From Candidatus Latescibacterota bacterium (lineage in GTDB: Bacteria > Latescibacterota > UBA2968 > UBA8231), in assembly GCA_965203175.1 (NCBI GenBank), contig OZ241867.1, positions 6,515,470 to 6,579,469 of the forward strand: a stretch of DNA of 64,000 bases. The letters run 5' to 3'. Below are positions 1 through 58,620 of the stretch, in pieces. Below the pieces are notes generated by a model. That model was not told the DNA's origin. It saw nothing but the letters and a program-made list of their open reading frames with translations, and ran no database searches. Numbering within the stretch: the first letter of the stretch is position 1; the number at the start of each line of letters is the position of its first letter. The translations under genes and the position numbers were made by a program.

Positions 1-1335
1 ATCCCGAGTAGTATTGACAAAAAAGGCGTCGGCCGTGCGACGCTGCCACTTGCCGTCTCCGGCGTGGGAGGGATACTGGCGAAATTCAAAGGTGCGGGCG
101 AACTCCGTGCGCAGAGAAAAATCCCGGCGCTGCACTTCGAGGCGCAGGCTGGCATTGGTGCGGCCCGTGTGGCGGCCGTACTCAAAGTTCACCCAGCGCC
201 GGTTGGAGCCATCGCGCACTTGGCCCTCGGCCGCGATCACCGGATAGAAAAAAGTGGCGCGTTCGCCAGTTATATCGACGTTGGTCGATGACTCGACCGC
301 AGCCGGCAGAAAAACTTCGGCCATTTCAATGCGGTAGTCATTGGCCACCATCCCGCGAAAGCGCAAGCGCTCGACCTGCCCTCGCATCTCCTGGGGTATT
401 TTGAACCAGTAGAGCAAAAACTCCGAGCCATTGGCTTCGAGAAATTCCCCTTGCTCGGCCGGCTCCACAGCCAAGTCTCCCCGGAGAAACTCGATGTACG
501 GCGGTATGGTCTTGCCCAGCGGAAAGAAGCGGTCGCGGTTGGGATAGGTTCTATCGATTTGCTCGCTATCGTGGCGGGTGACGAGTGGCTGGACGGTTCC
601 GAGCGTCCCTTCGATGTGCAGGTCGTAGATCCGGGCTCCGCCGCCATCCTTAGGCGAACCATCGTCGAACTTGACCACTATGTAGGCCGGCGGCGTGTTC
701 TTGCGCGGCACCACGCCCTTGATGCTGTTGTCGCCCCAAGAGGTCAAGCTGTTGGTGCGGTGCAAGTTGACATAGGAGAAGCTCACGTCCAGCACCCCGA
801 ACTTGCGCTGGACGTGGCCGCCGAGCAGGTAGGTAGCCCAATCCCGGGCTCCGTGCAATTCGAGATTATCCCCCGGAAAGATGGGCCAGTCGAGGCGCGA
901 CGTGACAAAGGAAAATTGGCTGCCATCGACATCGGCGTCCCAGCGGGCGCCGTTGAGCGCAACTAGGTCGAGAGTGAGGGCGGTGAACTTGGTGCGGATG
1001 CGGTCGCCGACGATCAGCCGGCTGCTCCAATTGCCATAGCTGTCTTGGGCCACCAGCAGGCGATTGAGGTACTGCTGGTAAAAGCGGCTTTTGTCGATAA
1101 AACTACCCGACTCGGGCGGATTGGTCCGCCCTTCCTCCAATTCAAAAACGCCGACCCCGTCGAGGACGAAGTTGCCCAAATCGTCGTACACATTGCGCGT
1201 GACTTGGCCAAATATCCCCGAGTTGTACGCGCGGTACCCCTGGCGGGCATAGCTTTCGTAGCGCTCCTCAGCATCGTAGAGCAGTTGCCCAAAGGCGGGC
1301 GCGGACCAAGCCAAGACGATGAGTACTAGGACCAT
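1..1335 (-). CDS. Uncharacterised secreted putative outer-membrane beta-barrel protein, paralog 1 (3' end runs off the window)
   Basis: Absent from the ORF track because there is no stop in the window; translated by hand. MVLVLIVLAWSAPAFG-Q signal, then YESYARQGYRAY, LIVGDRIRTKFTALTLD, FSYVNLH, KFDDGSPKDGGG and GQVRDGSNRRWVNFEYG, all colinear with 1407..4094 and 30235..32868. ATG 1335 preferred; in-frame GTG at 1338 and 1347. Confidence 0.85.
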   Translation of the reverse strand, partial: MVLVLIVLAWSAPAFGQLLYDAEERYESYARQGYRAYNSGIFGQVTRNVYDDLGNFVLDGVGVFELEEGRTNPPESGSFIDKSRFYQQYLNRLLVAQDSYGNWSSRLIVGDRIRTKFTALTLDLVALNGARWDADVDGSQFSFVTSRLDWPIFPGDNLELHGARDWATYLLGGHVQRKFGVLDVSFSYVNLHRTNSLTSWGDNSIKGVVPRKNTPPAYIVVKFDDGSPKDGGGARIYDLHIEGTLGTVQPLVTRHDSEQIDRTYPNRDRFFPLGKTIPPYIEFLRGDLAVEPAEQGEFLEANGSEFLLYWFKIPQEMRGQVERLRFRGMVANDYRIEMAEVFLPAAVESSTNVDITGERATFFYPVIAAEGQVRDGSNRRWVNFEYGRHTGRTNASLRLEVQRRDFSLRTEFARTFEFRQYPSHAGDGKWQRRTADAFFVNTTRD

Positions 1336-1417
1336 CACAGCACGCACCTCTCGATAAAAATCAATCGCCCCATCTGCGTTCCATCTGCGTCCATCTGCGG
1401 ATAACATCACAGCACGC
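1333..1417. repeat. Inserted repeat module: 3x CCATCTGCG(T/G) flanked by a 13-bp direct repeat
   Basis: CCATCTGCGTT, CCATCTGCGT and CCATCTGCGG at 1370-1400. CATCACAGCACGC is present at both 1333-1345 and 1405-1417. Confidence 0.8.
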
Positions 1418-4094: not shown

Positions 4095-4125
4095 AATTCA
4101 GTATACCTATTTTAAATATTGCGCC

Positions 4126-4154
4126 GTAGGGGGCGGTTTGAAACCGCCCCCTAC
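4126..4154. repeat. GTAG-type REP-like palindrome
   Basis: GTAGGGGGCGGTTT-G-AAACCGCCCCCTAC: a perfect 14-bp inverted repeat starting with GTAG. It is intergenic and followed by TGCGTAACATCAG (4160-4172). Confidence 0.8.
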
Positions 4155-4176
4155 CCGGGTGCGTAACATCAGTTAG

Positions 4177-6237: not shown

Positions 6238-6346
6238 CGCGTTGCGGATTGTTGCCAGATGGACGGAAAAGGCGGCGAAACGCAGAAAATTGACTACTCC
6301 CAATCCTAAAGGAGTTGGGATTCTTGGCAGCCATCCCCTCTGAGGT

Positions 6347-7348
6347 TCAATTAGGATCGGAATCGTCCTGCTTGACTCGCTTATGTCTCTTGATCCGTCC
6401 CCACGAAGTCTCGGCCACGGCCGTCGGCTCCCCGCCGGTATAAGACGCGATGTCCATCACGTAAATCTCATCGTTGCCGTCGCGATTGGACACGAAGGCG
6501 ATGTGCCGGCCATCCGGAGACCACGAAGGAGAGTGGTCTTCGGCCGGGTGGTCTGTCAGGCGACGAGGGTTGCTCCCATCCGAACCCATCACGTATATCT
6601 CATAGTTACCGTCGCGGTCGGAGGTGAAGGCGATGTGCCGGCCATCCGGAGACCACGAAGGAGACCCGTCATAGCCACTGGCATCGGTCAGGTTGCGCCG
6701 ATTTTCTCCATTCGCATCCATCACCATAATATCACGGGCATGGTGAGAGTGAAGGTGAAAGGCGATATGCCGACCATCCGGAGACCACGAAGGATCTAGG
6801 TCTTGGCCCCAGTCGCCGCTCAGATTCCGCAGGTTTTCCCCAGACAAATCTATCACGTAAATCTTTCTGGCGGGCGTAACGCGGTGGGAAGTGAACGCGA
6901 TAGATTGCCCATCTGGGGACCACGAAGGCATCCAGTCAGTCTGAACGTGGTCGGTCAGGCGGCGTACATTGTCTCCATTTGCATCCATCACGTAAATCTC
7001 ACTGTTGCCGCCTCCCACGCGCTCGGAGAAAAAGGTGATAGAGTGACCGTCTGGAGACCACGAAGGATCCCCGTCCGTGCTACTGTCATTGGTTAGGTTT
7101 CGCAGGTTGTCCCCATTTGCATCCATCACGTAAATCTCATAGTTGCCGTCGCGGTTGGACTCGAAGGCGATGTGCCGACCATCCGGAGACCAAGAAGGAG
7201 ACCAGTCATCGCCGCTGGCATCGGTTAGGCGGCGTATGTCTCCGGCGACCCAAGCCTCCCCATCACTGCTCGTCACCGTTTGCCCCCAGCCAGCGCCGGC
7301 CAGCCCCAGCGTTGCCAAGCAGACGATTAGTATCGACCGATAGTTCAT
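6347..7348 (-). CDS. TolB-like PD40/WD40-like beta-propeller secreted protein with TAVAETSWGRIK tail
   Basis: AGGAGG RBS, ATG 7348 and signal peptide. Six repeats of PSWSPDG(R/H/Q)xIxFxSxRDGNxEIYVMD at a ~44-aa period. Confidence 0.9.
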   Translation of the reverse strand: MNYRSILIVCLATLGLAGAGWGQTVTSSDGEAWVAGDIRRLTDASGDDWSPSWSPDGRHIAFESNRDGNYEIYVMDANGDNLRNLTNDSSTDGDPSWSPDGHSITFFSERVGGGNSEIYVMDANGDNVRRLTDHVQTDWMPSWSPDGQSIAFTSHRVTPARKIYVIDLSGENLRNLSGDWGQDLDPSWSPDGRHIAFHLHSHHARDIMVMDANGENRRNLTDASGYDGSPSWSPDGRHIAFTSDRDGNYEIYVMGSDGSNPRRLTDHPAEDHSPSWSPDGRHIAFVSNRDGNDEIYVMDIASYTGGEPTAVAETSWGRIKRHKRVKQDDSDPN

Positions 7349-7400
7349 AACGTGCCTCCTTTCGGAAGGTTGTGAAAGGAACTTATATCCTTGAGTGCCC

Positions 7401-7453
7401 AAAAAAAAGGGATCGAGTGCAATGGCGGGTTGCCCCGGCCAAAACCCGATCCC
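7401..7453 (-). terminator. Probable intrinsic terminator after the 7476..9299 gene
   Basis: On the minus strand, a GGGATCGGG...CTCGATCCC stem with an internal GCAA-loop hairpin, followed by T8. Confidence 0.65.
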
Positions 7454-7475
7454 CTAAAAAAGACAGATCTGCGAG

Positions 7476-9299: not shown

Positions 9300-9346
9300 G
9301 AAACTGCCTCCCCTAGGTGATTAGTGTCTGCGAAATGGACGAAATG

Positions 9347-9360
9347 TTGAAATTCATCAA
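9347..9360. promoter_or_regulatory. Possible FNR/CRP-family site upstream of the 9299 gene
   Basis: TTGAA-ATTC-ATCAA, one mismatch to TTGAT-N4-ATCAA, in an AT-rich intergenic region. Confidence 0.3.
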
Positions 9361-9466
9361 AATAGATAACATCAGCGCACAGCTATCCCGTCCACTATAT
9401 AGAAATTAAAGAGATATGTCAAAGTAAAAACTCAGCCCCTGAAAGATCCCTGTTGGCGCAGTTAGT

Positions 9467-11056
9467 CTATTGGATCTGCTTGGAACGGACCAATTCGAGA
9501 AAAGACCGGATGCGCGGATAATCGGGTTGCGATGCGAGTACCTGTTCAAAAGCGGCCTCGGCTTCTGGGTAGCGCTGTAGATCAATCCAGGCCAAACCGA
9601 GGCCAAAACGGGCGTGGACGTGCCCGGGGTCGGTTGCTAGGACTTGCTCAAAGAGCGGCACGGCTTGGGCAGGACGCAGCCCGCGCACGTGGAGCATGCC
9701 CAGTTCGAACTGCGCCTTAGTCCACCCGGGCTCGAGGACCAGAGCCCTCGCAAAGGCCGCGGTGGCCCGCTCGTCGCCTCCAGCTTTGGCATGGGCCTGA
9801 CCCAAGCGCAGGTGGAAGCGCGCCGAATCCGGGGCTAGGGCCACGGCCTGTTCTAGGGCGGCAATGGCTTTGTCCGTCCGCCCCTGCCGGTCATAGACCA
9901 AACCTAGATCGGCGTGAATCCCAACCATGCCCGGCTCGAGGGCCAAGGCTTTTTTGAACTCTTCAATAGCCCGATCGTACTGGCTAGCTTCGGCATAGGC
10001 CACGGCCAAGGCGCGGCGCTCTAGGGCTTTTTCGGGTTGGCGCTGGACCCGCAATTGGGCCATATAGAGCGAGTCTTGTTCGCCTTCTTCGAGGGCGACA
10101 AAGCGCTCCTGCGCGCGCTGGCTGGCGGCGGTGCGGCCCAAGAGTTGGTAGGATCTGGCCAAATTGTAGTACGCCTGTCGGTAGCGCGGTTCGAGAGCGA
10201 TGGCCCGCTCGTACGCCTCCACAGCTTTGGCGGGCGATCCCCGTCGATCCAGCACTCTCCCCAAGTTGTAGAACGCTTCGGCATCCGTGGAGTCGAGCCC
10301 GACGGCCGCCCGCAATGAGACGGCCGCGCTGTCCAAGTCGCCTTTTTCCAGATAGATGGCACCCAAGCGGCGATGCGCTGTCGCTAGACCTATGTCGAGT
10401 TCTAGGGAATGTCTGTACGCGGCTGCGGCCTGGACGGATAGATTCCGCAATTCATAGGTGCGGCCCAGGTTGTAGTGGAAATGGGCATTGGTCGGCTCGA
10501 GATTCACAGCCCTGCTCAGGGAGGCAATAGCCGTGTCGAGATCGGTGTAGCTGAGATTGATCGGTTTATCCGTGGCCGTGGGTGCGCGCCGCGCATAGGC
10601 CACCCCGAGGTGGAAGTGGGCCTCGGCGAATTCCGGAGCCAAGGCCGCGCTTTGCCGCCAGTGCTGGATGGCGTCGTTGTACTTGCCAATCCGCGCGTAC
10701 ACTTGTCCCAAGCCAAAGTGGGCGCGCACACTGGCGGGGTGCTTTCCCAAGGCGGCTTGGTAGAGCGCCACAGCGCGAGCGTATTCGTCCTGCTGGACTA
10801 GGGCTGCGGCCAGATCGCAGTACATCTCGAGATCGGCTCGACCTTCCCGTATGGCCGCCTCTATAGCACCGAGCGGCAGGGCCGACCGGGGACCAGAGCC
10901 ATAGCGAGCGCGCAACTGATCCTGGCGCGCGGATGTCGGCTCGTATTGCTCGTCGGCGCAACCGCTGAGCGAGATGATCGGTAGCGCGAGAAAGAGCCGA
11001 TAAATCCAAGGAGCAGATTGCGGCCTATCACTGCGCTGGCAGAGATCCAGCCGCAT
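9467..11056 (-). CDS. TPR-repeat lipoprotein
   Basis: Lipobox LSGC and more than 10 TPR motifs (AHFGLGQVY, AFYNLGRVL, ARFGLGLAW). Start uncertain: 11056 after GGGAG; track gives 11098. Confidence 0.85.
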   Translation of the reverse strand: MRLDLCQRSDRPQSAPWIYRLFLALPIISLSGCADEQYEPTSARQDQLRARYGSGPRSALPLGAIEAAIREGRADLEMYCDLAAALVQQDEYARAVALYQAALGKHPASVRAHFGLGQVYARIGKYNDAIQHWRQSAALAPEFAEAHFHLGVAYARRAPTATDKPINLSYTDLDTAIASLSRAVNLEPTNAHFHYNLGRTYELRNLSVQAAAAYRHSLELDIGLATAHRRLGAIYLEKGDLDSAAVSLRAAVGLDSTDAEAFYNLGRVLDRRGSPAKAVEAYERAIALEPRYRQAYYNLARSYQLLGRTAASQRAQERFVALEEGEQDSLYMAQLRVQRQPEKALERRALAVAYAEASQYDRAIEEFKKALALEPGMVGIHADLGLVYDRQGRTDKAIAALEQAVALAPDSARFHLRLGQAHAKAGGDERATAAFARALVLEPGWTKAQFELGMLHVRGLRPAQAVPLFEQVLATDPGHVHARFGLGLAWIDLQRYPEAEAAFEQVLASQPDYPRIRSFLELVRSKQIQ

Positions 11057-11516
11057 ACTCCCGATCCTCGGGGAAATCGACAAAGGGATGGGCACCAACT
11101 GAAATCAGCTTGGTCGCCGGGTTCACAGTCAACCGAGCGTATTGCCCAAAGGGACGCCAGCGTTTGGCCGGAGTGTTGTCTATTTTTTCCGGCTCGTTCT
11201 GCGGAGGGTCAAGGCCAATGATGCGAAAAGCCTCGACTTCGTCAAAGGGCTCCATGGCGGCGAAATTATACGTGACATAGACAATTTTGCCCTGCTTGAT
11301 GGCCGCGAAAAGTTTCACTCCCCCAACGTCCTCCCAGCGCATAAAACCCACGTGCTTTTCGGTTTCCTCTCTGTACTGCTTAGGTTCCCCCAAACGCGCC
11401 TGCACCGCCGAGGGAGTGCTGGCCAACAGGGCGTGGGCGTCTAGGGGTCCTTCCGGGGAGCAGGCTAGGCCGAGGAGCAGAACCGTGGCCAACGGACAAA
11501 AACCAGACCATTTCAT
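11028..11516 (-). CDS. Hypothetical lipoprotein
   Basis: Signal peptide with lipobox LGLAC. Overlaps the start of the downstream TPR gene. Confidence 0.75.
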   Translation of the reverse strand: MKWSGFCPLATVLLLGLACSPEGPLDAHALLASTPSAVQARLGEPKQYREETEKHVGFMRWEDVGGVKLFAAIKQGKIVYVTYNFAAMEPFDEVEAFRIIGLDPPQNEPEKIDNTPAKRWRPFGQYARLTVNPATKLISVGAHPFVDFPEDREYAAGSLPAQ

Positions 11517-11634
11517 AGGGGATTGTTCTCTGTGTTGCTCAATGCCTTATCGCCGAATCGGTGCAACAATAGGCGCGTTGGCAGGCTGCGTCAAGGTTGA
11601 CAAATGCAGGGGCGCACTTCAGTTTCGGCCAACT

Positions 11635-13569: not shown

Positions 13570-13578
13570 TTTAAATTC

Positions 13579-14271
13579 GTGGATCTCGTAAGCGAACTCT
13601 GGTACTCCATGGCCTTCACTGGCAAGGCCGTGGTGGTGATCTTGGCCGGCCTGTCCATTTATTCCTATGCGGTCATGGTGGACCGCGGCCTGACTTTGCG
13701 CTGGACCCGGCAGCGTTCGGCCGCTTTTGCCCGTGAAATTGAAGAGGGCGGCCTGATGCTGGGAGAAGTCAAAGCAGTGCAGGAATGCGCCCATCGAGCC
13801 GAGCAAGACGGACATTGCGCTCTGGCTGTGGTGACTTCAGCCGCTCTGGCGGAATACGAGCTATTGGCGGAGGAAGGACAGTCCGATGTGGTAGTGCTGG
13901 AGGCCGTGGACGATGCGCTCGGCCGCTCGCTGGACAGCGTGGTCGCCAATCTGCGGGTCCGGCTCTCCGGCATGGGCACCATTGTCGGGGTCGCGCCCTT
14001 CTTGGGGCTTTTTGGCACCGTGACTGGGTTGATTGCCGCTTTTCGCGGCATTGCCACCACAGGCGGCGGGGGCCTAGCCGAGGTATCGGGCGGGATCTCC
14101 GAAGCCCTAGTCACCACGGTCATCGGCCTGTTTGTCGCCATGCCCGCCCTGTGGGCGTACAATTTTTTTACCAACCGCATTGAGGCCATGTCTCTCGGGC
14201 TGGAAAACAACGCAGCCCGCATCGTCGGCCACGTGGTGCGCCGCGCGCTCAAGGCCAATCGCGTCCCCTAG
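13579..14271 (+). CDS. exbB: MotA/TolQ/ExbB proton channel
   Basis: APFLGLFGTVTGLI..F..GISEALVTTVIGLFVAMPA signature. Confidence 0.9.
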   Translation: MDLVSELWYSMAFTGKAVVVILAGLSIYSYAVMVDRGLTLRWTRQRSAAFAREIEEGGLMLGEVKAVQECAHRAEQDGHCALAVVTSAALAEYELLAEEGQSDVVVLEAVDDALGRSLDSVVANLRVRLSGMGTIVGVAPFLGLFGTVTGLIAAFRGIATTGGGGLAEVSGGISEALVTTVIGLFVAMPALWAYNFFTNRIEAMSLGLENNAARIVGHVVRRALKANRVP

Positions 14272-14279
14272 CAAGTATC

Positions 14280-14708
14280 ATGGCCAGACGCAGCAAGCGC
14301 CGAACTCGCCACGCCGAAGTGCGGCGCAGCCCCATGCCCGACATCACGCCCATCGTCAATGTGGCGCTGGTGCTGTTGATCGTCTTCATGGTGGTCATGC
14401 CGCTCATTCAAGAGGGCATCTTGGTAGAGACGCCCGAAGCCCGCAATGCCCAGGAGATCGTCGAGCAACTCGGCGCAGAGAGTTTGATTCTCTCCATTCA
14501 GGAAGACGGTTCCCTGTACATCAATTTGCACCAAGTGGCGCGGGCCGACCTCAAACGCGAACTGGCCAGGGCCTATCACGGCAAAGAAGGCGAGCCCATC
14601 ATCGTCAAGGGCTCCAAGAATCTACCCTATCGCGAAATACTCGACTTGATGGAAATCTGTCAGGAGATCGGGGCACCGGGGGTGGATTTAATGGTCAAAA
14701 AACCGTAA
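14280..14708 (+). CDS. exbD: ExbD/TolR family protein (conserved TM Asp replaced by Asn)
   Basis: DITPIVNVALVLLIVFMVVMP, followed by a periplasmic domain with LPYREILDLM. Confidence 0.85.
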   Translation: MARRSKRRTRHAEVRRSPMPDITPIVNVALVLLIVFMVVMPLIQEGILVETPEARNAQEIVEQLGAESLILSIQEDGSLYINLHQVARADLKRELARAYHGKEGEPIIVKGSKNLPYREILDLMEICQEIGAPGVDLMVKKP

Positions 14709-14709
14709 C

Positions 14710-15111
14710 ATGGCGCGACGGCACAGAAGGAAATTCGCCCGGGTAGAATCGTCCATGAACGCGACCCCACTGGCGGACGTATCCCTTTCTCTGCTATTGG
14801 GCTTCTTGGTGATCACCCCGATTATTCTGCAAACCTTGGCGACCCAATTGCCCCAGGCAGGCGGAGTCGCTTCGGGGCAAGTTCGCCAAGATCCGAGGGT
14901 CGTTCTCACAGCAGAGGGCGAAATCCTGATCAACGACAAAAAGGTGAGCGAGGAAGAATTGCCAGCTAGGCTAAAGGAACTCTTTCCGCCTGAAGCCGAT
15001 GTGGAGCGTCGGGTCGTGTTTACGGGATCGGGAGAAGTCCCGTACCGGGATGTGATCAACGTACTCGATCTGCTCAAGGAAAACGGCGTCGAAACCATCG
15101 GCATCCGTTGA
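14710..15111 (+). CDS. exbD: ExbD/TolR family protein
   Basis: MNATPLADVSLSLLLGFLVITP and VPYRDVINVLDLLKENGV. Confidence 0.85.
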   Translation: MARRHRRKFARVESSMNATPLADVSLSLLLGFLVITPIILQTLATQLPQAGGVASGQVRQDPRVVLTAEGEILINDKKVSEEELPARLKELFPPEADVERRVVFTGSGEVPYRDVINVLDLLKENGVETIGIR

Positions 15112-15124
15112 GCCTAACTCGCAG

Positions 15125-18100: not shown

Positions 18101-18487
18101 CAAATCGCCGTACCAGGCCCAGTCGTACTCGGTATCGGCCGCAGAGTGGATACCCACAAAACCACCGCCACTGCGAATGTAGCGCTCGAAAGCTCGCTCT
18201 TGCTCAGCGGCTAGGACGTCGCCGGTCGTATTGAGAAAAATCACCGCCCGATACGGTGCCAATCCCTCGTCGGTAAAACGCCCCGCGTCCTCAGTGGCCT
18301 CGACGGCAAAACCGTTTTCCCGCCCCAAGGCCTGGACGGCGGCAATGCCGTCGGGAATGGAGTCGTGGCGGAAACCAGCGGCTTTAGTAAAAATCAAGAC
18401 GGCCACATGCTGATCATCAAAAGGTTCCGCAAGAACTTGGGAAAGTCCTACAAACAACAGTGCGACGGGCCAACGCGTAGTTTTCAA
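15125..18487 (-). CDS. Secreted multidomain protein: ThuA-like + PQQ-dependent glucose/sorbosone dehydrogenase + PKD + CBM6 + T9SS type-A-like CTD
   Basis: FTKAAGFRHDSIPDG and GGGFVGIHSAADTEYDW (ThuA); CCHSGGALAFGPDGNLYIGVGD and YVMGVRNPFR (GSDH); YAWDFTGDG (PKD); NIGFIAHGDWISF (CBM6); YPNPFNPT..RRMVLLR. Confidence 0.9.
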   Translation of the reverse strand: MKTTRWPVALLFVGLSQVLAEPFDDQHVAVLIFTKAAGFRHDSIPDGIAAVQALGRENGFAVEATEDAGRFTDEGLAPYRAVIFLNTTGDVLAAEQERAFERYIRSGGGFVGIHSAADTEYDWAWYGDLVGAYFDSHPAIQQGQIHVADRVHPATSHLSARWERRDEWYNYRRNPRGRVHILATLDEGSYDGGNHGFDHPIAWCHDYDGGRSWYTGGGHTRESYGEPLFMQHILGGIEYATGVTAADCGVTLDTNFAKVVLDSEAENPIDLAVAPDGRVFFIERKGELNVYRPDLGLTRLAGQLAVSTDFEDGLLGIALDPDFVRNNWLYLFYSPHGEEAKQHVSRFELDGDELVLDSEVVLLEIPTQRRACCHSGGALAFGPDGNLYIGVGDNTNPFDSDGFSPLDERPDRRDWDAQRTAANSADLRGKILRIKPQDDGSYSIPPGNLFAEAEEGRPEIYVMGVRNPFRLSIDRKSGWLYWGDVGPDARQADPQRGPIGLDEWNQARAAGNFGWPYCIGDNQPYVAYDFATESSGMPFDCGALRNLSPNNTGLQSLPPAQAAWVWYPYGTSSAFPEIIADSGRTALAGPVYYYDAAAGDKKLPEYYDGTLFMYEWASNWIKEVKLDEDGNILKINPFLDSMEFIRPISMQFGPDGSLYVLEWGSGFWGDNDDARVVRIDYVRGTRAPVPRIEAVPTNGAAPLEVHFSGRNSFDPDPGSMLDYAWDFTGDGEIDATGLEVVFTYEVSGDYIAQLMVSDAEGNQGVAQVPISVGNTVPEVEIVRPPDGGFFSWGEVVDFEVRAFDEEDGTADCARVVLQAFIGHDEHSHPLEEYGACSGSFQTEAGHGGDGDDLFYTIEARYTDRGTESVAPLTGRAGHILQPKRKQAEHYTRQSGVLLETTGDEAGGGQNIGFIAHGDWISFAPMNLEGIESLNYRVASAGLGGRIEVRVDSLKGPPISAVRVGSTGAWQVYTDLAAPIADPGGTHELFFIFLRNPGDDGLFNINWIDFQGPGVSRPSATAVEAESSSQGSLPGQPVLYPPYPNPFNPTAQIRFVLPERMAVRLEVFDILGQRVDVVINEALDAGSHAVRFGRADLASGVYIVRLATLGGDLVRRMVLLR

Positions 18488-20460
18488 AACATCCGAATCC
18501 TATTCCCGGTCATACCTGTAAACCCATCGACGACCATCCAGAAGCCTCCAGCGACGAACTGCCCCAATACCATGCCAAGAAAAAACCACCGCGTCGCCTT
18601 GTACCCATTCGGCCCAGTATACTTCAACACGAGAGCCTTGACCAGCCACGCGAGGAAAATGCTAAACCAGACGCTGTTGAGGATCCAGGTGCCGCTAGCC
18701 AAATAACCCAGCGGATGGAAGGGCCACCACAAAAGGTGGTGCCGCGCCCAGATCAACAGCGCCATAATCGCCGCGCCGACTCCGTTCCACAGCCAGCCAT
18801 CCCAATTGGGGCCAGTCGGATTGAGCGCAAAGTTTTGCGCCACGCGAAACGGCTCCTTGGCAAACCACGCCCACGAACCGTGGTAGTTGTTCGCGCCGTA
18901 GTGGTAGCTCAGCACGAGGATCGTGCAAACCCCGCCCACGAGGCCAATGGCCATGGCCATCCCGATCATCGCGAGGATGCGGCGTTTGTAGCGGCTCAGG
19001 CCGTGCAACATGCGAATGCCGTTGGCGCAGGGAGCCATCATAAACACCAGCAGGTCGCCAGCCCAAGCGAGCGTCATGCCCGTGGCCAGCACCCCAGCCA
19101 CCCCAAGGGACGAGGAGCCGACGCTGGAGATGAGAAAGCCGCAGCCCGACATGCCCTGGACGGCCGCGGCCAAACCAGCTTCGACGATCATCCGCGTCAG
19201 GGCCAAAAAAATGACAAACGCCCCGAACAGATAGACGAAGACCGCCCACAGCGGCAGGCCAGAACGCCATAGCCACAGCGACATAACCGCGAGGCCCAGC
19301 GCAACCCCGAGGGTCGCCGTGCGGTACGACATCAGTTCCTCGCCATCGGACCGCCCCTCCCGCCGCCAGAGGTGCTGCACAACGTGCCATATATGGACGC
19401 GCGCCGTCCACAGTCCCAAAATCACCATGACGATCATCGCGCCCATGGTCTGATGGCTCAGCAGGCCCATGGTCGGCCCCTCAAAGGTGTGGCTGAAAAT
19501 GTCTAGATTCTCGGTGCTCAAGATGCCGATGCGGGTAAAGAGTACCTCCTCGGCTTTGACCAACAAATAGAAGAACCACAAGCTAAAGGTGATGTTGGCG
19601 TTGACTAGATAGGCTAGTCCCATCCACATGCAGTCGAAGCGCAAGTAAAACCGCACCGCGTCATGGGCCAGCGGCATCGAATAAGCAAAGTTGATGCGAC
19701 CGATGAACTCGTAGTAGTGGCTCAAGGCATTGACCCCGTGCAGCACAAACGGCACGGCCAGCCCCAGCCACATCGCGGGATTCTTCAGGAAGGGTTTGAC
19801 TCGCGAGGGCGTCGCCTCATCCTCGACCATGCCCAGCGGTACCTGCGTCAGCGGGTAGAGCAGCCGCTCGTGGTCCATCCACTGCCGCCGCAAGATGACC
19901 ATCGAACACACGACGACCACGTAGAACGCAGCCATAAACAACAGCCACCACAAAAGCGGCTCCAGCCAAGCGCCCCACGGGATCGCCGCACCTTCCGGCA
20001 GGCCCTCGTAAAAACCTTGAATGGCTTGGGCATCGTAGGGAATGAGCCAAGTGGGGACGTGCGGGAGGAGCAGCTCCTCCCAGTTGTTTTCCGGGCTAGC
20101 GAAGTAGAAGATGCCGGTCAGAATCGGCACCGCAATGCTGATGAAACCCCGCGCGGCAATGGCAGTGGTAATCATCATCATCACCGCAATACTCAACAAC
20201 TCGGCGCGGCTAAAAAGCCAGTCTCGCCGCACCAAGCCGAGCAGCGGCTGCACGAGCGCCACGAGCAAAAAGAGCAAGAAAAAGGCGGCCGGCGTCGAGG
20301 AATTCAGCCCGAGCTGGGTGCCGTTGAGGACGAATTCCCCGTACGGCAGGCCCACGGCAATCGCGCCACACAGCACGGCCCCCACGAGCATGGCGCGCAC
20401 GCTGATTCCGGCGCGGTGCGCGGATTTCCTCGAATCGTCCATAGCGCGTGGTTCGCTCAA
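18484..20460 (-). CDS. Polytopic membrane protein, putative OPT-like transporter (DUF6785/DUF6784-like)
   Basis: About 16 hydrophobic segments; LRRQWMDHERLLYPL, WWPFHPLGY and FFLGMVLGQF motifs. Confidence 0.8.
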   Translation of the reverse strand: MSEPRAMDDSRKSAHRAGISVRAMLVGAVLCGAIAVGLPYGEFVLNGTQLGLNSSTPAAFFLLFLLVALVQPLLGLVRRDWLFSRAELLSIAVMMMITTAIAARGFISIAVPILTGIFYFASPENNWEELLLPHVPTWLIPYDAQAIQGFYEGLPEGAAIPWGAWLEPLLWWLLFMAAFYVVVVCSMVILRRQWMDHERLLYPLTQVPLGMVEDEATPSRVKPFLKNPAMWLGLAVPFVLHGVNALSHYYEFIGRINFAYSMPLAHDAVRFYLRFDCMWMGLAYLVNANITFSLWFFYLLVKAEEVLFTRIGILSTENLDIFSHTFEGPTMGLLSHQTMGAMIVMVILGLWTARVHIWHVVQHLWRREGRSDGEELMSYRTATLGVALGLAVMSLWLWRSGLPLWAVFVYLFGAFVIFLALTRMIVEAGLAAAVQGMSGCGFLISSVGSSSLGVAGVLATGMTLAWAGDLLVFMMAPCANGIRMLHGLSRYKRRILAMIGMAMAIGLVGGVCTILVLSYHYGANNYHGSWAWFAKEPFRVAQNFALNPTGPNWDGWLWNGVGAAIMALLIWARHHLLWWPFHPLGYLASGTWILNSVWFSIFLAWLVKALVLKYTGPNGYKATRWFFLGMVLGQFVAGGFWMVVDGFTGMTGNRIRMF

Positions 20461-21425: not shown

Positions 21426-21464
21426 CTGCCAAATTTCCTTGCCAAATTTTCGGATTCTGACTGC

Positions 21465-21502
21465 CGTTTAAGTATGCCTCTTGGCCATCTCCATGTCCAC
21501 TT
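21465..21502 (-). promoter_or_regulatory. Sigma70-like promoter TGGACA-N17-CATACT (copy 1)
   Basis: Minus strand AAGTGGACA..AAGAGGCATACTTAAACG, about 40 nt upstream of ATG 21425. 32/38 identical to 37084-37121. Confidence 0.65.
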
Positions 21503-21612
21503 TGTCCCGACTTTTTGGTTTGTGTCGCATAGCTGGCGATTGTATATTTAGCCTCTTCAATAAAGCTTGCAAAGGTTGCAAGTTCGCTCAAACCACCACA
21601 AGGAGAGCAAGA

Positions 21613-22548
21613 ATGAAGTTATTGATTGCGTGCGGCTTTAGCCTAGCCTTAATCGGAGCCGCAAACGCCCAGTTCAACGATCCGCCGGCCCTCGAAAATC
21701 GCAACGGCCGGCTCGGCTTTGAGTTTTACATGCTCGAAGTCCCCGATCCCAGTTCCATGACGGCCGATGGCGACGCCAGCGACTGGGGCTGGTTCGATCC
21801 CGAGTACACCCTCACCATGGATGAGTGGCGCGACGAAGCCGATCGTCCCCTGCCCGAGCGCGATGACTACAACGTCACCACCCTCATGGGCTGGAAAGGC
21901 GGCGATGTCAACCGCTGGTACGTGCATATGGAAATTGTCGACGACGTCCTCTGCCACTGGGGCACTAACGTCGAGCAATGGCACGCCGACATGATCGAAT
22001 TTTCCCTCGACCCGACGGATCACGGTCGCGAATTCGGCACCGGTTGGGTCATGGAATACATCGCCCGCCCGGGCGACATGGTGCCGCCGCAGAACGTGCG
22101 CTATCGCTGGACTCAGGACGATAAGCCCCCAGCGTGGAAGGAAAACAACGAGGTCATCGAGTTCGCCGTCCGCGTCGATCCGCCCGAAGCTTGGGCCGCT
22201 GAAGTGTGGGACGCCGGTGGGACCACGTATTACGAGTGGAACTACGAGGTCAAGAGATTCATGGAAGACGGCGGGCCGTCGGTCAGCGAGACCTTCCAGT
22301 TGGATGCCGTTGCCGGGGAAGACGGCGCGGGCCTAGCCTTCAACCTGTGGGCTGAGGACAGCGAGCCAACAGGAGACGACGGCGACCGCGCCTCTTCAGT
22401 GGTCAACGACATGACCACGCGCGGCCCCGAAGCCTCGGCGCGGCAGTATTACGCTCATGCCCTGCTGCTCCGCATCGGCGAGTACGCCGCCGCAACGTCC
22501 GTGGAAGAGTCAACTTGGGCACAGATCAAGGATTCTTTCGGCCGCTAA
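21613..22548 (+). CDS. Secreted acidic protein (DOMON/CBM9-like fold suspected) with TSVEESTWAQIK tail
   Basis: AGGAG RBS, ATG 21613, signal peptide ANA-Q. ADGDASDW and DMIEFSLDP resemble CBM9/DOMON motifs. Confidence 0.8.
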   Translation: MKLLIACGFSLALIGAANAQFNDPPALENRNGRLGFEFYMLEVPDPSSMTADGDASDWGWFDPEYTLTMDEWRDEADRPLPERDDYNVTTLMGWKGGDVNRWYVHMEIVDDVLCHWGTNVEQWHADMIEFSLDPTDHGREFGTGWVMEYIARPGDMVPPQNVRYRWTQDDKPPAWKENNEVIEFAVRVDPPEAWAAEVWDAGGTTYYEWNYEVKRFMEDGGPSVSETFQLDAVAGEDGAGLAFNLWAEDSEPTGDDGDRASSVVNDMTTRGPEASARQYYAHALLLRIGEYAAATSVEESTWAQIKDSFGR

Positions 22549-22555
22549 ACCCCTC

Positions 22556-22656
22556 GGAGCGGCTTCGCGGCCGAATGCCGTCGTGGAGCCGCTCCACCTC
22601 ACATCGAGAATTCTCTTCAGGGCGGGTGCGCGTTATCAGGTGCCCGCCCACTTTTG
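22556..22656 (+). terminator. Two intergenic hairpins; the second is terminator-like
   Basis: GGAGCGGCTTC..GGAGCCGCTCC (22556-22595), then GGGCGGGTGC..GTGCCCGCCC followed by ACTTTTG (22620-22656). Confidence 0.55.
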
Positions 22657-22698
22657 CATCTTCACTGGCGTCGCCTTGGTAGGTAGAGAGAACGTACA

Positions 22699-23418
22699 AT
22701 GCGCGGATGCTTATGGATCGCGGTGCTCATCTTCCTCGTCAGCGGTTGTGGGCGCTATTTCCCCCAACCGCTGCGGCCCACGCCCCAACAGGCCGAGGGC
22801 ATAACCGTCAACGACGACGGCTCCGTCACCTACGCACGCGAGCGGCTGGCCATCACCCTAAGGCCAATGACCGACGCCGAACTCAACCGGCAATTTCCCC
22901 AAGCCTCGACCGGCGGTGCTGCCGCAGTCAATCCCTATACCTTTGGCGATTGGGCCCCACCCGGCGACGACTGGACGCCTTCCCGCTTTTTGGTGATGAA
23001 ACTAGGCGTCGCCAATTACCAGTTCCCCAAGGTCGTCATCGACCCTCTCAAAGCCACGATCAAAGCGGCCAACAATCAAATCTACCGCGCCTTGAGCTAC
23101 GCCGAGCTGTACGAATACTACCGATCGTACTGGCAGGCCAACTCCGGCCAAGGCCGAATCGAATTCAGGGCCCGCACCGACATTCTCAAGCAAACCATGT
23201 TCACCAATGCCTTCATCTTCAGTGGCCGCGACGAGGAAGGGTACATCGTCTTTCCCCGTTTGGACGACGAAATACAGCGCATCCAAGTGGAAATCGCCGA
23301 CATCGCCATCCGCTTCAATTTCGAGGACAAACCCGTGGAGACCATTGACCTCAGCGTTTCTTTCGAGCGCGAGGTACTCAAGGGGAACGCGCCCCACAGC
23401 GCGGTTCCATTGAACTGA
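22699..23418 (+). CDS. Hypothetical lipoprotein heading the discoidin/barrel operon
   Basis: Lipobox LVSGC; ends 5 nt before the next gene. Confidence 0.8.
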   Translation: MRGCLWIAVLIFLVSGCGRYFPQPLRPTPQQAEGITVNDDGSVTYARERLAITLRPMTDAELNRQFPQASTGGAAAVNPYTFGDWAPPGDDWTPSRFLVMKLGVANYQFPKVVIDPLKATIKAANNQIYRALSYAELYEYYRSYWQANSGQGRIEFRARTDILKQTMFTNAFIFSGRDEEGYIVFPRLDDEIQRIQVEIADIAIRFNFEDKPVETIDLSVSFEREVLKGNAPHSAVPLN

Positions 23419-23423
23419 GAATC

Positions 23424-29931: not shown

Positions 29932-29978
29932 ATCGTGTTAAACGCGACACATCGGAAACAACAAACGAATAGAAGAAC

Positions 29979-30197
29979 ATGAAGATCAACTACTTTGAAG
30001 ATACGGACACCGCATTTATCGAGTTCACTTCGCAACCTGTCGCCGAGACTCGCGAGTTGTGCGAAAACATCTACATAGACCTCGACAAGCAAGGGAACCT
30101 CGTCTCCATGAAAATTGAGCACGCCAAAACGAGTGCCAACATCTTAGATTTCACCTTTGAGCGTCAAGAAAAGCAACCGAGTGATGACAGTGTTTAG
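29979..30197 (+). CDS. DUF2283-like small protein (putative antitoxin-like)
   Basis: MKINYFEDTDTAFIEF..IYIDLDKQGNLVSMKIEHA pattern; AT-richer than its neighbours. Confidence 0.8.
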   Translation: MKINYFEDTDTAFIEFTSQPVAETRELCENIYIDLDKQGNLVSMKIEHAKTSANILDFTFERQEKQPSDDSV

Positions 30198-30224
30198 TGG
30201 TCAGTGGCCACTAAACACTAAACA
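30189..30224. repeat. Hairpin with heptamer repeats
   Basis: AGTGTTTAGTGG (30189-30200) and CCACTAAACACT (30208-30219) form a perfect 12-bp inverted repeat. Tandem CACTAAA x2. Confidence 0.65.
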
Positions 30225-30234
30225 GGAGGAGGAC

Positions 30235-32868
30235 GTGACACGTCTGACGATACTATTGCTGTATTGTGGTTTGCTCCTCGGGACGCCGCAGCCGTCTGCA
30301 GCCCAGCGCGCCACCGGATTTGACAATCCCTATTACACTTCAGCCACTGAAGTCGCGCCCTCAACCCTCGTCCCTTCAGTGCGCAAGTGGTACCAGCCGC
30401 AGCGCCTGTACGAACTCTACGACTGGCGACAAGACCAATACTCCAACTACGCGCGCAACCCCTACCAACGCTACAACGACGTCTTCTTGGAGGGATCGCC
30501 CTTTTACGACATCTACGGCTCTTATATCAGCCAAGGTTGGCGGGTGTACAACTGGACCGAGGACTATCCCACGGCCAGCGGCAGCAGCATCTTCAAAAGC
30601 CCGCGCTTCAGCTCGTGGTTTAGCAACGTCCTCATCTCCTCCAGCCACTCCGGACAGTTCCACTCCTCGCTGATGGTAGGCGACGGCATCCGCACGACCC
30701 TGACGCCGCTCACCTTTTCCAAGCCGCGTTTCGACGGCGTGCAGTGGGACATGATGTCGGACAAATACGTCCTAACTCTACTCACCTCGCGCATCAACAA
30801 CACCGGCGTCGTCGCCGGTGTCGCCGGCGAGGCTGGCGTGAAGTTCAGCACCTTCACCAATATGTGGGCCGCCAAAGGCCAAGTCAGCATCGGCGACTTT
30901 TCCAATGTCGGCCTAACGTTTGTCAACGCTGCCCACATGAACTCCAACATTCCCTTTGGTGACAATTCGCTCAAAGGCCAGCTCAGCGGGCCGATGAACA
31001 ACGACTTCGTGCGCTCGATCATCGTGCGCATTTCCGACGACTCGCCCGAAGACGGCGAAGGCGGTGCCCTGCTGTCGCGCTGGCGCATCTTTGCCAATGG
31101 CGTCGAGCACACCGACGATATCGCGCCCGTGGTAGAAGGTGGCTTCCGCCGCCGCGGCGTGATTGAAGCGAGTGGCACCGACGTAATAACCCTCACGTTC
31201 AACATCGAGGACTTCGCGCCCACCGTTGACGACGAAATCGACGACTTCCGCGAAATTGAGCACGTGGAGATCGGCCTAGTACTGGCCAACGACTACAAAG
31301 TGGAGGTCGCTTCCAACAAACAGACCAACCAACTCGGCGCACCTGTGTTCCTGACCGTGTTGCGCGCACCGGGCAACGTCAAGGACGGCGCCAACCAAGC
31401 CTTTCACACCTTTCGCTACGGCCTGCCCACTGGCAACCGGCTGCTCGGCTTTGACCTGTCGATCAACGATGTCGCCGGTTTTGACCTGCGGGGAGAATAC
31501 GTGCGGAATTTCCAGTACCGCCGCTTCCCCAACGAAAACTTCATCCGCGAACAAGCTCTCGCTACCAACACCGCCGAAGCCTTTTACTTGACAGCCCAGA
31601 AGCGGCATTACCCGTGGACGGTTTTCGCCGAGGCCTTTAGCATGGACGCGGAATACTCGACCCAAGCCTTTATCCCTAACTCCGAGGGCGAAGTGTACTA
31701 CGGCAACGAGCAACAAAGTGTGTACGAATTCGTCGATGACAACGACGATCAAGACGAATTACCCGACTGGACCCGGCGCTATCACGGCCCGCGCGTCAAC
31801 ACTCGCCAAGGGATCGGCCTGCTGACCGACAGCGCGGTCTTCCCCGGGATCGACGAAAACAACGACGATCTCTCGGATTTTAACCGCAACTTCAACCGCA
31901 TACCCGACTACGCCGAGCCTTTCCTGCGCTTCGAGGTCGATCCCCCCGACTTTCTCTTTGGCATGGACATGAACAACAACGGGGTCATTGACCGCTTTGA
32001 AGACGACTCCGAAGCGGACTATCCCTACAAGCGTGGGCACCGGGGATACAACACATATGTAGGCGTTGAAATCGCGCCGGACATAAACCTCATGGCCGGC
32101 CGACTCGACGAGCGCCTGCTGAAAACCGCCCGCGAAAACGCGACCACGTACCTGCTCTTGACTGCGAGCGAAAAATTCCCGCGCTACAACCTGCAATTGC
32201 GACTGATCGTCAATCCGCGCAAGGTCGCAGACGACATTCCCGAGGACGTCTTTTTGTGGGTCGATACGCCCGGCACATTCGGAGAATCGCGCTTTATCCG
32301 CGACCAACTCGTGGCGCGCGATGCGTTCGTCAACACCACGTATTTAGACGTGCGCTACGACCGCTATATCTCGTTTACCACCAAGGTCAAGCACGAACAA
32401 TACACGCAATTAGGGTCGGCTGCTGAAGAGTTGAACAACCAGCGCTTCCTCGGCGTGATCAACAAGGCCCAGTACCCGCTCCACCTGCGCTCTTGGGATT
32501 TGACCCTGAACTGGAAACAGCTATACAGCAATCGGGTACCTGCGGACAAGGGCGCGTTGCAAACGTCCGATCTAACGGAAATTTTCTCGCTGCTGGCCGG
32601 CCGCGAGATCAACCGCAACATGAGCTTTACCGCGGGCGTCGAATACGAGATCGCCAACAATCTGGGCGAGCAACCCGAGGGGTTTCTAGAAGACGGCACT
32701 ACGCTAGTGCTGGCCGGCCAGATCGCCAACCAATCGGCCTATCAGGGGTATGCGCTGACGACCAACGTCGGGCTGCGCTGGACTCGCGAAGACCTCGACT
32801 CAGCTCCTGCATCGGCCAAGCTATTCACCTTTATCAGCGTCTTCGCCGGGCTCGGCAAGGACCTGTAA
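30235..32868 (+). CDS. Uncharacterised secreted putative outer-membrane beta-barrel protein with Asp-rich loops, paralog 3
   Basis: GTG 30235 after AGGAGGAGG; signal SAA-Q. Shares MVGD..TPLT, SDDSPED, RAPGNVKDG, YRRFP, VDDNDDQD, IPDYAEPFL and DMNNNGVIDRFE with 1407..4094. Confidence 0.85.
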   Translation: MTRLTILLLYCGLLLGTPQPSAAQRATGFDNPYYTSATEVAPSTLVPSVRKWYQPQRLYELYDWRQDQYSNYARNPYQRYNDVFLEGSPFYDIYGSYISQGWRVYNWTEDYPTASGSSIFKSPRFSSWFSNVLISSSHSGQFHSSLMVGDGIRTTLTPLTFSKPRFDGVQWDMMSDKYVLTLLTSRINNTGVVAGVAGEAGVKFSTFTNMWAAKGQVSIGDFSNVGLTFVNAAHMNSNIPFGDNSLKGQLSGPMNNDFVRSIIVRISDDSPEDGEGGALLSRWRIFANGVEHTDDIAPVVEGGFRRRGVIEASGTDVITLTFNIEDFAPTVDDEIDDFREIEHVEIGLVLANDYKVEVASNKQTNQLGAPVFLTVLRAPGNVKDGANQAFHTFRYGLPTGNRLLGFDLSINDVAGFDLRGEYVRNFQYRRFPNENFIREQALATNTAEAFYLTAQKRHYPWTVFAEAFSMDAEYSTQAFIPNSEGEVYYGNEQQSVYEFVDDNDDQDELPDWTRRYHGPRVNTRQGIGLLTDSAVFPGIDENNDDLSDFNRNFNRIPDYAEPFLRFEVDPPDFLFGMDMNNNGVIDRFEDDSEADYPYKRGHRGYNTYVGVEIAPDINLMAGRLDERLLKTARENATTYLLLTASEKFPRYNLQLRLIVNPRKVADDIPEDVFLWVDTPGTFGESRFIRDQLVARDAFVNTTYLDVRYDRYISFTTKVKHEQYTQLGSAAEELNNQRFLGVINKAQYPLHLRSWDLTLNWKQLYSNRVPADKGALQTSDLTEIFSLLAGREINRNMSFTAGVEYEIANNLGEQPEGFLEDGTTLVLAGQIANQSAYQGYALTTNVGLRWTREDLDSAPASAKLFTFISVFAGLGKDL

Positions 32869-34191: not shown

Positions 34192-34207
34192 ACGACGAAT
34201 TTCTCCG

Positions 34208-35839: not shown

Positions 35840-35841
35840 GG

Positions 35842-44876: not shown

Positions 44877-44879
44877 CTT

Positions 44880-50778: not shown

Positions 50779-50847
50779 TGTTTGGACGACACACGCCAAA
50801 GAAAGGAATCCCGTGGACAAAGCACACACAACGAGGATCTGCTCCAG

Positions 50848-55304: not shown

Positions 55305-55308
55305 GAGA

Positions 55309-58611: not shown

Positions 58612-58620
58612 GGGGCAAGC

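Follow-up and report, generated by a model that had tools for sequence, protein, structure and literature searches.

In this work we have analysed a 64,000-nucleotide stretch of DNA from a Candidatus Latescibacterota bacterium (contig OZ241867.1, positions 6,515,470 to 6,579,469), here called the window, with which a genome of 6.58 Mb on a single contig ends. The window holds two oppositely oriented loci, A and B, in which genes for very large predicted barrel proteins of about 900 residues, here called BAR, stand next to genes for secreted proteins, here called C, that carry discoidin-like domains and a C-terminal domain (CTD) resembling those of type IX secretion system (T9SS) cargo (Table 1). 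The identities of the window genes are based on a listing of open reading frames (ORFs) and on Pfam and NCBIfam scans, and the gene order given for both loci in a preliminary description, made from the letters alone, was recovered completely, each listed gene being found at or near its place. The same description had counted two loci with three barrel paralogs, a picture which has to be enlarged, since a phmmer search of the whole genome found 40 loci with 62 BAR genes. In locus B the three C genes overlap or abut (23424-29931), and the C protein of locus A ends in a type-B-like CTD with the motif FSPNGDGVND ... VAVVY.

The three BAR proteins of the window matched no Pfam model at E below 0.01 and no NCBIfam model, and the expectation that the family would correspond to no characterised model has thus been confirmed. 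A phmmer search of 1.84 billion proteins brought up relatives in 440 representative clusters (E <=0.001); of 67 relatives in a second database, 66 lacked a precomputed Pfam domain and those that were named were all called 'hypothetical protein'. The 62 full-length paralogs of this genome measure 861-1049 residues. We obtained an AlphaFold2 model of the 895-residue paralog from 50 sequences (predicted local distance difference test 83.4, predicted template-modelling score 0.81), to which DSSP assigns about 30 long strands. Foldseek gave 25 matches to this model in the PDB at E <=0.001, all of those listed being outer-membrane barrels, and a second, all-against-all structure aligner likewise returned outer-membrane barrels alone. 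The best of these was the Deinococcus SlpA/SDBC barrel 7zgx (Z 12.7, root-mean-square deviation 6.8, 358 residues aligned), followed by LptD 7omm (Z 11.1, 328 residues aligned); BcsC, PgaA-like and PelBC barrels were matched with Z of about 10-11 and SprA 6h3i with Z 10.1, and TonB-dependent transporters (Z about 9-10, root-mean-square deviation 11-12 Å) fitted no better than unrelated barrels. Sequence identity in these matches is 5-14% and the TM-scores are 0.13-0.25; being so generic and so low in identity, they fix the class of barrel and not its family. SlpA/SDBC, LptD and MtrB are accordingly the nearest structures in barrel class alone, and BAR differs from SlpA and LptD in having no SLH, OstA or LptE context. 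From the model we predict with confidence that BAR is a very large outer-membrane beta-barrel; the family is new and without known relatives, and the membrane barrel proposed in the preliminary description is borne out by the confident model together with the structure matches. BAR carries a signal peptide, as do C and the CBM9-like proteins described below. The family consensus has a phenylalanine 5-6 residues from the end, with a near-invariant F889; the window paralogs end in ...RVL and ...GKDL, so a terminal aromatic residue is not strictly kept. Conserved Asp-rich motifs (DDNDDxD, NNNGxxD) and PDYPY fall into an insert outside the strands, at about residues 498-623. The nearest named cluster in an Atlas search, DUF6029 'TonB-dependent receptor-like' (score 0.89, 164 shared features), was below the trusted level and was not used.

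How firmly are BAR and C linked? Beyond the window, where genes were called by a crude longest-ORF rule, phmmer places the 62 BAR paralogs of our own ORF set in 48 tandem groups (36 single, 10 double and 2 triple). Together the BAR and C genes take up 8.4% of the genome, of which 2.6% (172 kb) falls to BAR and 5.8% to C. Neighbouring families were defined by BLAST clustering and compared with a baseline of 9.6% of all genes lying within six genes of BAR. Within that distance lie 119 of the 168 C paralogs, 35 of the 38 PpiC-type rotamase lipoproteins (f8), 32 of the 43 CBM9-like secreted proteins (f7) and 14 of the 17 f13 lipoproteins, as well as 26 of 56 FG-GAP/UnbV_ASPIC proteins (f4), 21 of 34 and 9 of 15 members of two families with tetratricopeptide repeats (TPR; f10 and f14), and 20 of 52 proteins with DUF6785 and DUF6784 (f5). 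The usual order is f7, sometimes f13, one to three C genes, one to three BAR genes and f8, and the immediate upstream gene on the same strand is a C gene in 42 of the 48 BAR groups. The motif P[ND]GDG.N[DE] was found in the last 130 residues of 121 proteins; 72 of them are encoded within three genes of BAR (5% of all genes) and 97 within ten (15%). Three C genes are present at 11 loci; there, the best cross-locus match of the C protein nearest to BAR was always another BAR-proximal C (11/11), and the proteins at positions 1 and 2 mostly held their places as well (8/11 and 6/11). This positional matching suggests fixed subunit roles and not a loose array of cargo.

A similar arrangement was seen in other genomes, which were searched with a 12-row BAR alignment. 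The public loci closest to those of the window are 91-97% identical and come from metagenome-assembled genomes (MAGs) labelled Latescibacterota or Latescibacteria. Eighty loci were collected, of which ten could not be judged (one without a called barrel, nine with less than 2.5 kb of upstream DNA); a C gene lies at most two genes upstream of BAR in 62 of the 70 others, a count which overstates the independent support because many of these loci are orthologous, while some of the eight misses are artefacts of the ORF caller. The public labels of this group are inconsistent: at least three loci assigned to 'Gemmatimonadota' MAGs are affected, and L062, L078 and L024, labelled Gemmatimonadota or Gemmatimonadaceae, match genomes of the window's family contig position for position. 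We also sampled 121 genomes of the phylum, which include close kin and are not independent, so that they give a pattern and no statistical test. BAR was present in 71 of them, including 40/40 of the window's family, and was missing from four other sampled families (0/29, 0/13, 0/2 and 0/5). All 71 BAR-positive genomes had CHU_C matches, at least four in all but one, with best E-values of about 6e-6 to 9e-15; among the 50 BAR-negative genomes, 12 had no such match and 38 had 1-5 weak ones (best 4e-7). SprA was found in 116/121 genomes, including 49/50 of the BAR-negative ones. It follows from this distribution that BAR tracks type-B-like tails and not the T9SS as such. The linkage between barrel and discoidin/CTD proteins that the preliminary description had seen in two loci is thereby upheld in this genome, in the loci of other genomes and in the phyletic pattern.

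The C proteins match F5_F8_type_C and NedA-like galactose-binding models, with CHU_C/FlgD_ig at the C-terminus. The model of the 708-residue C protein (mean predicted local distance difference test 87) is a chain of beta-sandwiches resembling complement MG arrays, the lectin domain of galactose oxidase, N-terminal domains of GH78 enzymes and the carbohydrate-binding module of AftD, and structure comparison revealed no catalytic fold in it. The C proteins are therefore best described, on domain matches and a single predicted structure, as putative secreted, non-catalytic, all-beta, lectin-like glycan binders. Two of the four window proteins exceed the 27-bit cut-off of PF13585 (CHU_C; 27.9 and 32.7 bits) and two fall below it (22.3 and 18.9), and none reaches the 35-bit cut-off of TIGR04131 (best 33.7); many C paralogs elsewhere in the genome are above the Pfam CHU_C cut-off. 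The four window proteins carry SPNGDGVND, TPNGDGVND, TPNGDGAND and TPNGDAVND, all 85-100 residues from the end. A PNGDGxND-type motif near the domain start is what we take to be a feature of T9SS type-B CTDs. The partner f7 is CBM9-like by Atlas search (scores 0.94-0.97, CBM9_1 in 13-94% of cluster members), and a protein related to f7 with the same tail matches CBM9_1 directly. Lipoboxes are present in the f13, f8 and TPR proteins. The tail itself, approximately TAVExx[ST]WGx[IV]K with another 3-15 residues after it, stands within 45 residues of the C-terminus in 89 proteins and at other places in a single one; its carriers include 37 of the 43 f7 proteins and 18 PD40 propellers of family f12, and it contains no transmembrane segment and matches no NCBIfam model. 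It has the look of a signal for sorting or attachment that has not been described.

Could BAR simply hold the C proteins at the surface? If BAR acted as PorP/SprF does, it would retain type-B-like C proteins after their export by the T9SS and transport nothing. We find this account doubtful, yet it deserves serious weighing. According to excerpts of two papers (PMC9143113, PMC12618676), type-B cargo of Bacteroidota binds and needs cognate PorP/SprF-like barrels, and the cargo-then-barrel order of those genes is mirrored by C and BAR. The likeness extends to the SprB-SprF and PG1035-PorP-PorE sets, where, as here, cargo with a CHU_C-type C-terminus has its barrel gene directly downstream, and to the associated TPR protein, PorE being described in partial sources as a TPR and beta-propeller protein. 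A passage of PMC11285876 allows that the T9SS may occur in other phyla of the Fibrobacterota-Chlorobiota-Bacteroidota (FCB) group. In our genome SprA (618 bits) and PorU (632 bits) are both above cut-off, and a PorV-like gene (147.5 bits, cut-off 250) follows PorU directly. The PorP/SprF model gave a single 21-bit match here and none above the curated cut-off in any of the 121 phylum genomes, and more than 120 type-B-like tails stand against three strong homologs of a small PorP/PorV-like barrel; that BAR presence follows the tails and not the T9SS speaks for an anchoring role as well. Bacteroidota models of GldL, GldM and GldN found no match, and GldK gave only partial matches to FGE-sulfatase-like ORFs of about 235-440 residues, but no positive control rang in these searches and absence is not established; the GldK model also produced sub-threshold partial matches in three control genomes without a T9SS. 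Of the core T9SS, SprA, PorU and the PorV-like gene have been recovered, and GldK, GldL, GldM and GldN went undetected in searches without a positive control.

The small barrels themselves are a difficulty for an anchoring role. Weak PorP matches in another family of the phylum adjoin BAR genes in the order C, a barrel of about 320 residues, one or two BAR, a TPR protein of about 1100 residues, DUF5683, a small protein, ExbB and ExbD(-ExbD); the small barrel between C and BAR is seen in the taxonomic families f9 and f10 of the phylum. The small barrel scores 73-86 bits on NF033709 (PorV/PorQ; cut-off 90) and, in one locus, 26.3 bits on PF11751 (PorP_SprF; cut-off 22.3). Loci A and B have no cognate PorP/SprF-like barrel gene, and of the approximately 40 loci of this genome just one does: among its three strong small-barrel homologs, one lies 39 nt upstream of BAR, in the order C, small barrel, BAR, TPR (1090 residues), ExbB, ExbD, ExbD, PpiC. 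A second locus reads C, three BAR, TPR (1080), DUF5683, fn3, DUF4159, f13, one further gene, ExbB, ExbD, ExbD. BAR relatives of about 28% identity are named from Ignavibacteriales and Handelsmanbacteria MAGs, so the family cannot be called lineage-specific, as had been supposed. We fetched 17 metagenome loci of Ignavibacteriales type, 16 of them with a GC content of 35-45%; in all 15 with upstream DNA the order is C (discoidin and CHU_C), small barrel, BAR, and most continue with a TPR protein of about 1050 residues, ExbB, ExbD, DUF4159, f13 and f13+DUF4159. The small barrel, standing between C and BAR within one operon, implies that BAR is an additional component and no substitute for a PorP-like shuttle. 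In size (about 900 residues against about 300, roughly threefold) and with its approximately 30 strands and 62 copies per genome BAR also departs from PorP/SprF; there is no profile similarity to the small barrels of the operons (hhalign probability 0.2%), and none of the three window barrels matches TIGR03519, PF11751 or NF033709. Simple anchoring further leaves unexplained the tandem BAR triplets, the attached ExbBD and the TonB_C-like protein. The proposal that the barrel is a counterpart of PorP/SprF is therefore half sustained: the pairing of cargo and barrel holds and no PorP rises above cut-off in the 121 genomes, but the small barrel occurs in the same operon. In one further cluster of this genome (3053056-3060000) an f7-like protein, a small PorV-like barrel, TPR (1081), ExbB and ExbD are found together where no BAR is present; a separate unit of small barrel, TPR and ExbBD may thus exist.

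We infer an ancestral single-copy operon, shared by distant FCB lineages and made up of C, small barrel, BAR, a TPR protein of about 1050 residues, ExbB, ExbD, DUF4159 and f13, from which the window loci would be derived, multiplied copies that have lost the small barrel. ExbB-ExbD(-ExbD) belongs to the BAR operon in other families of the phylum, at two further loci of our genome and in Ignavibacteriales-type loci. The ExbBD and PpiC genes of the window are recurrent parts of the system and no bystanders, the triad of the window lying 5 kb from locus A. The preliminary description rightly saw the triad without a TonB gene, but a weak TonB_C-like domain lies just outside the window. It belongs to a 375-residue lipoprotein, the gene of which follows the third BAR of locus A and stands some 4 kb beyond the window. 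Residues 1-240 of this protein are 33% identical to the f13 lipoprotein of locus B, and its C-terminus scores 26.4 bits on TonB_C in a six-frame search and 23.7 with hmmscan (cut-off 24.6). Three of four long f13 relatives from other genomes match TonB_C at the same position (14.8-17.2 bits), and of four TonB_C matches in this genome one adjoins BAR. We regard the TonB_C-like domain of long f13 proteins as a lead towards an energisation partner, not as proof of one.

If this operon is taken as a whole, it may be an undescribed envelope machine of FCB bacteria other than Bacteroidota, driven by the proton-motive force and acting either as a T9SS coupler that replaces the PorK/L/M/N (GldKLMN) motor and ring or as a new energised outer-membrane transporter, with an expansion of about 40-fold in Latescibacterota resembling that of polysaccharide-utilisation loci; as a complete account we think this unlikely. 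Another possibility, to which we give very little credence, is a Tol-Pal-like machine that tethers or remodels the outer membrane, with ExbB/ExbD in the place of TolQ/TolR, the TonB_C lipoprotein as TolA, the TPR protein as CpoB and BAR as the outer-membrane partner. With the YbgF/CpoB repeat model the TPR proteins of BAR operons do reach 188-228 bits, and with the TolB model (cut-off 343) the PD40 protein of locus A reaches 335 bits; the ancestral operon, too, has housekeeping flanks. However, YbgF is a repeat model whose scores add up over about 1000 residues of TPR, no Pal or OmpA_C gene was seen in the loci, and a 40-fold expansion beside lectin-like and carbohydrate genes is hard to account for by demands of envelope integrity. 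The modules share with both TonB-ExbB-ExbD and Tol-Pal an operon-borne ExbB, ExbD, ExbD, a TonB_C-like lipoprotein and a CpoB-like TPR protein, and differ from both in that the loci show no canonical TonB gene, no Plug and no Pal.

Synthase-dependent polysaccharide exporters combine a TPR protein with an outer-membrane barrel, as in AlgK/AlgE, PgaA and BcsC. Perhaps BAR, too, is an export pore or assembly platform, for C or for a polysaccharide, with the TPR protein as scaffold, PpiC as chaperone and the tail as docking site? The TPR and barrel layout, the BcsC, PgaA-like and PelBC fold matches, the one dedicated PpiC paralog per locus and a Wzz/GNVR gene adjoining one Ignavibacteriales-type locus are all compatible with this, as is f14, with weak PMT_2 matches (GT-C-like glycosyltransferase) and TPR, which follows BAR directly in 6 of 48 groups (for example L103:6924-8891 and L109:6350-8569) and may glycosylate periplasmic or surface proteins. 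Yet the scanned loci showed neither a synthase nor a polymerase gene, and their flanks are catabolic. The fold matches are common to all barrels, and the C tails match T9SS models in a genome that has SprA and PorU. We consider export by BAR to be improbable.

The flanking genes direct attention to carbohydrates. We sampled 96 proteins at 16 of the 40 loci, mostly at the first 13, and considered them with those of the window. Among them were sugar ABC (ATP-binding cassette) transporter binding proteins and permeases, genes for polysaccharide breakdown (sulfatases, FGE, PL4 lyase, GH5) and genes for sugar catabolism (MR_MLE, DHDPS and HpcH aldolases, PhyH, Gfo/Idh/MocA and ThuA/GSDH/CBM6). Proteins of the DUF6785+DUF6784 family, of about 658 residues with at least 10 predicted transmembrane segments, were not mentioned in the literature by a full-text search for DUF6785; they are candidates for an inner-membrane transporter family of the BAR loci. 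Near-identical DNA occurs in sponge metagenome runs. RNA-library contigs from three studies, 92-97% identical to the window, cover f7 to f13 (21582-23416), the first two C genes (23442-26724) and the third C gene with BAR and f8, and the module is possibly expressed. Gaps in cover and differences in depth of these contigs cannot rank the genes. In two RNA runs the contig with f7, hairpins and f13 had a depth of about 155 against 8-13 for contigs on the C genes, which cannot be read as a level of expression; as a lead, it fits hairpins that act as attenuators behind a strongly expressed first gene.

We hypothesize that the BAR-C modules serve energised capture and uptake of glycans, with BAR as conduit beside displayed C and CBM9-like proteins, in analogy to polysaccharide-utilisation loci. 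This is the account we prefer; we hold it tentatively and it could well prove wrong. The T9SS, with SprA, PorU and the PorV-like protein, would bring the C proteins to the cell surface. There they would remain, each next to its cognate BAR, and would share the binding of glycans with the CBM9-like protein. BAR would be the outer-membrane conduit, possibly energised via ExbBD and the TonB_C-like lipoprotein, and the flanking ABC sugar importers, DUF6785 proteins and carbohydrate-active enzymes would carry out the periplasmic and inner-membrane steps. In its overall logic such a module would equal a polysaccharide-utilisation locus assembled from other components. What we observe are the gene families with their copy number, synteny, phyletic co-occurrence and genomic context, together with the barrel fold as predicted; surface display, physical association, the direction of transport and energisation are what we infer.

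Several observations weigh against glycan uptake. Plug (PF07715) and TonB_dep_Rec (PF00593) were not matched by Pfam in BAR, and a BAR profile found only two chance-level matches among PDB sequences (E 0.059 and 0.71) and hence no solved relative. The genome has 31 Plug-domain matches above cut-off, all at places other than BAR, and with so many ordinary receptors the need for a second uptake family is not obvious. An ExbBD of their own is missing from most of the 40 loci, including locus B, and three of the six ExbB genes lie within 15 kb of BAR, a zone covering 21% of the genome, which is not significant alone, so that the argument for energisation rests on operon membership; the TonB_C matches are at or below cut-off. 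The flanks of the single-copy operon in Ignavibacteriales-type loci are housekeeping and not carbohydrate genes, and its original role may have been structural or secretory. The sample of flanking genes has no control count, DNA carry-over may account for the RNA-library contigs, the syntenic loci are in part orthologous, and GldK, GldL, GldM and GldN were not detected in searches that had no positive control. A complex prediction of BAR residues 55-895 with the CTD of C (596-708), made from separate alignments and without controls, gave 0.00 and counts neither way.

The features of the window and its immediate surroundings are collected in Table 1. Hairpins were judged by direct folding (kcal/mol and z) and not by a consensus terminator scan, which was not above shuffles (16 against 10.8 +/- 3.6; 11 against 14.7 +/- 4.4). 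An oxidoreductase gene also lies between loci A and B. The pair of f4 and TPR (f10) genes is a frequent neighbour of BAR loci; such FG-GAP/UnbV_ASPIC and TPR lipoprotein pairs occur twice in the window (34208-37044 and 41519-44325) and many times in the genome. Further along, a gene for a NapC/NirT-type tetrahaem cytochrome adjoins one for cytochrome c552 (NrfA-like, 402 bits) at 44394-46313, likely a nitrite-ammonifying pair, and an HlyD-type adaptor, two AcrB-type RND (resistance-nodulation-division) pumps and an ABC exporter stand in one row at 50782-60966.

Table 1. Features of loci A and B and of the genes around them; positions are those of the window.
Feature	Position	Strand	Remarks
BAR paralog, N-terminal 470 residues of a 914-residue barrel	1..1410	-	3' end beyond the window
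Third tandem BAR of locus A, 938 residues	just beyond the window		after the 914-residue barrel
BAR paralog, 895 residues	1407..4094	-	signal peptide; predicted large outer-membrane beta-barrel
13-bp GC-rich hairpin between C gene and BAR	4095..4176	-	no U tail; -32.4 kcal/mol, z -4.0
C-family protein, 708 residues	4177..6303	-	signal peptide; beta-sandwiches including discoidin; CHU_C/FlgD_ig tail
PD40/TolB-like beta-propeller, 351 residues, family f12	6347..7402	-	C-terminal tail ...TAVAETSWGRIK (...SWGRIK)
Terminator-like hairpin	7403..7475	-	U tail; -30.3 kcal/mol, z -3.8
Secreted protein, 607 residues	7476..9299	-	type-A T9SS CTD (NYPNPFN...)
Promoter-like site	9394-9422		near the 607-residue type-A-CTD gene
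TPR lipoprotein, 543 residues, family f10	9467..11098	-	
Sulfatase, 760 residues	11287..13569	+	
ExbB, ExbD, ExbD	13579..15111	+	13579-14271, 14280-14708, 14710-15111
ThuA-GSDH-PKD-CBM6 protein, 1120 residues	15125..18487	-	type-A CTD
DUF6785+DUF6784 polytopic membrane protein, family f5	18484..20460	-	at least 10 predicted transmembrane segments
CBM9-like secreted protein, 311 residues, family f7	21613..22548	+	...SVEESTWAQIK tail
Two strong hairpins 3' of f7	22549..22698	+	z -3.3
f13 lipoprotein, 239 residues	22699..23418	+	
C-family protein, 669 residues	23424..25433	+	position 1 of 3
C-family protein, 694 residues	25364..27448	+	position 2 of 3
C-family protein, 828 residues	27445..29931	+	position 3; barrel-proximal subfamily; CTD motif TPNGDAVND
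BAR paralog, 903 residues, locus B	30157..32868	+	
PpiC-type rotamase lipoprotein, 478 residues, family f8	32821..34257	-	convergent on locus B
FG-GAP/UnbV_ASPIC protein (f4) and TPR lipoprotein (f10)	34208..37044	-	34208-35839 and 35842-37044

The closest functional comparison for glycan capture by BAR and C is with the SusC/SusD loci of Bacteroidota, in which multi-copy large barrels and surface glycan binders occur with carbohydrate genes and ExbBD-type energisation. The BAR modules resemble them in their multi-copy large barrels, in the fixed order with what appear to be non-catalytic surface glycan binders, in the surrounding carbohydrate-active enzymes, sulfatases and sugar importers, and in the ExbBD-type link. 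They differ in that BAR has no Plug or TonB_dep_Rec domain and no SusD-like match was seen among the reported Pfam families of its neighbours, in that the C proteins have T9SS-type tails and not the lipid anchors of SusD binders, and in that the modules include PpiC lipoproteins and WGxIK-tailed CBM9-like proteins. The preliminary description could match the barrel system to no named one, and we were equally unable to find it in print: a full-text search (supplements excluded) for Latescibacter* together with T9SS, type IX secretion or outer membrane yielded no paper on the BAR system. As far as its consulted text goes, the 2015 Latescibacteria genome paper assumes unspecific porins for uptake across the outer membrane (PMC4454575).

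What could this mean for the biology of these bacteria? The finding touches on the working of the T9SS and of type-B cargo beyond Bacteroidota, in lineages for which the PorP and GldKLMN models yield few matches. The operon of Ignavibacteriales-type bacteria offers a possible experimental route, if a cultivable carrier exists. What is understood of the capture of polysaccharides at the outer membrane comes, to our knowledge, almost solely from TonB-dependent receptors and SusC/D systems. An equally expanded repertoire appears to be present in an uncultured, sponge-associated phylum, built around a barrel that databases have not named and around T9SS-type surface proteins.

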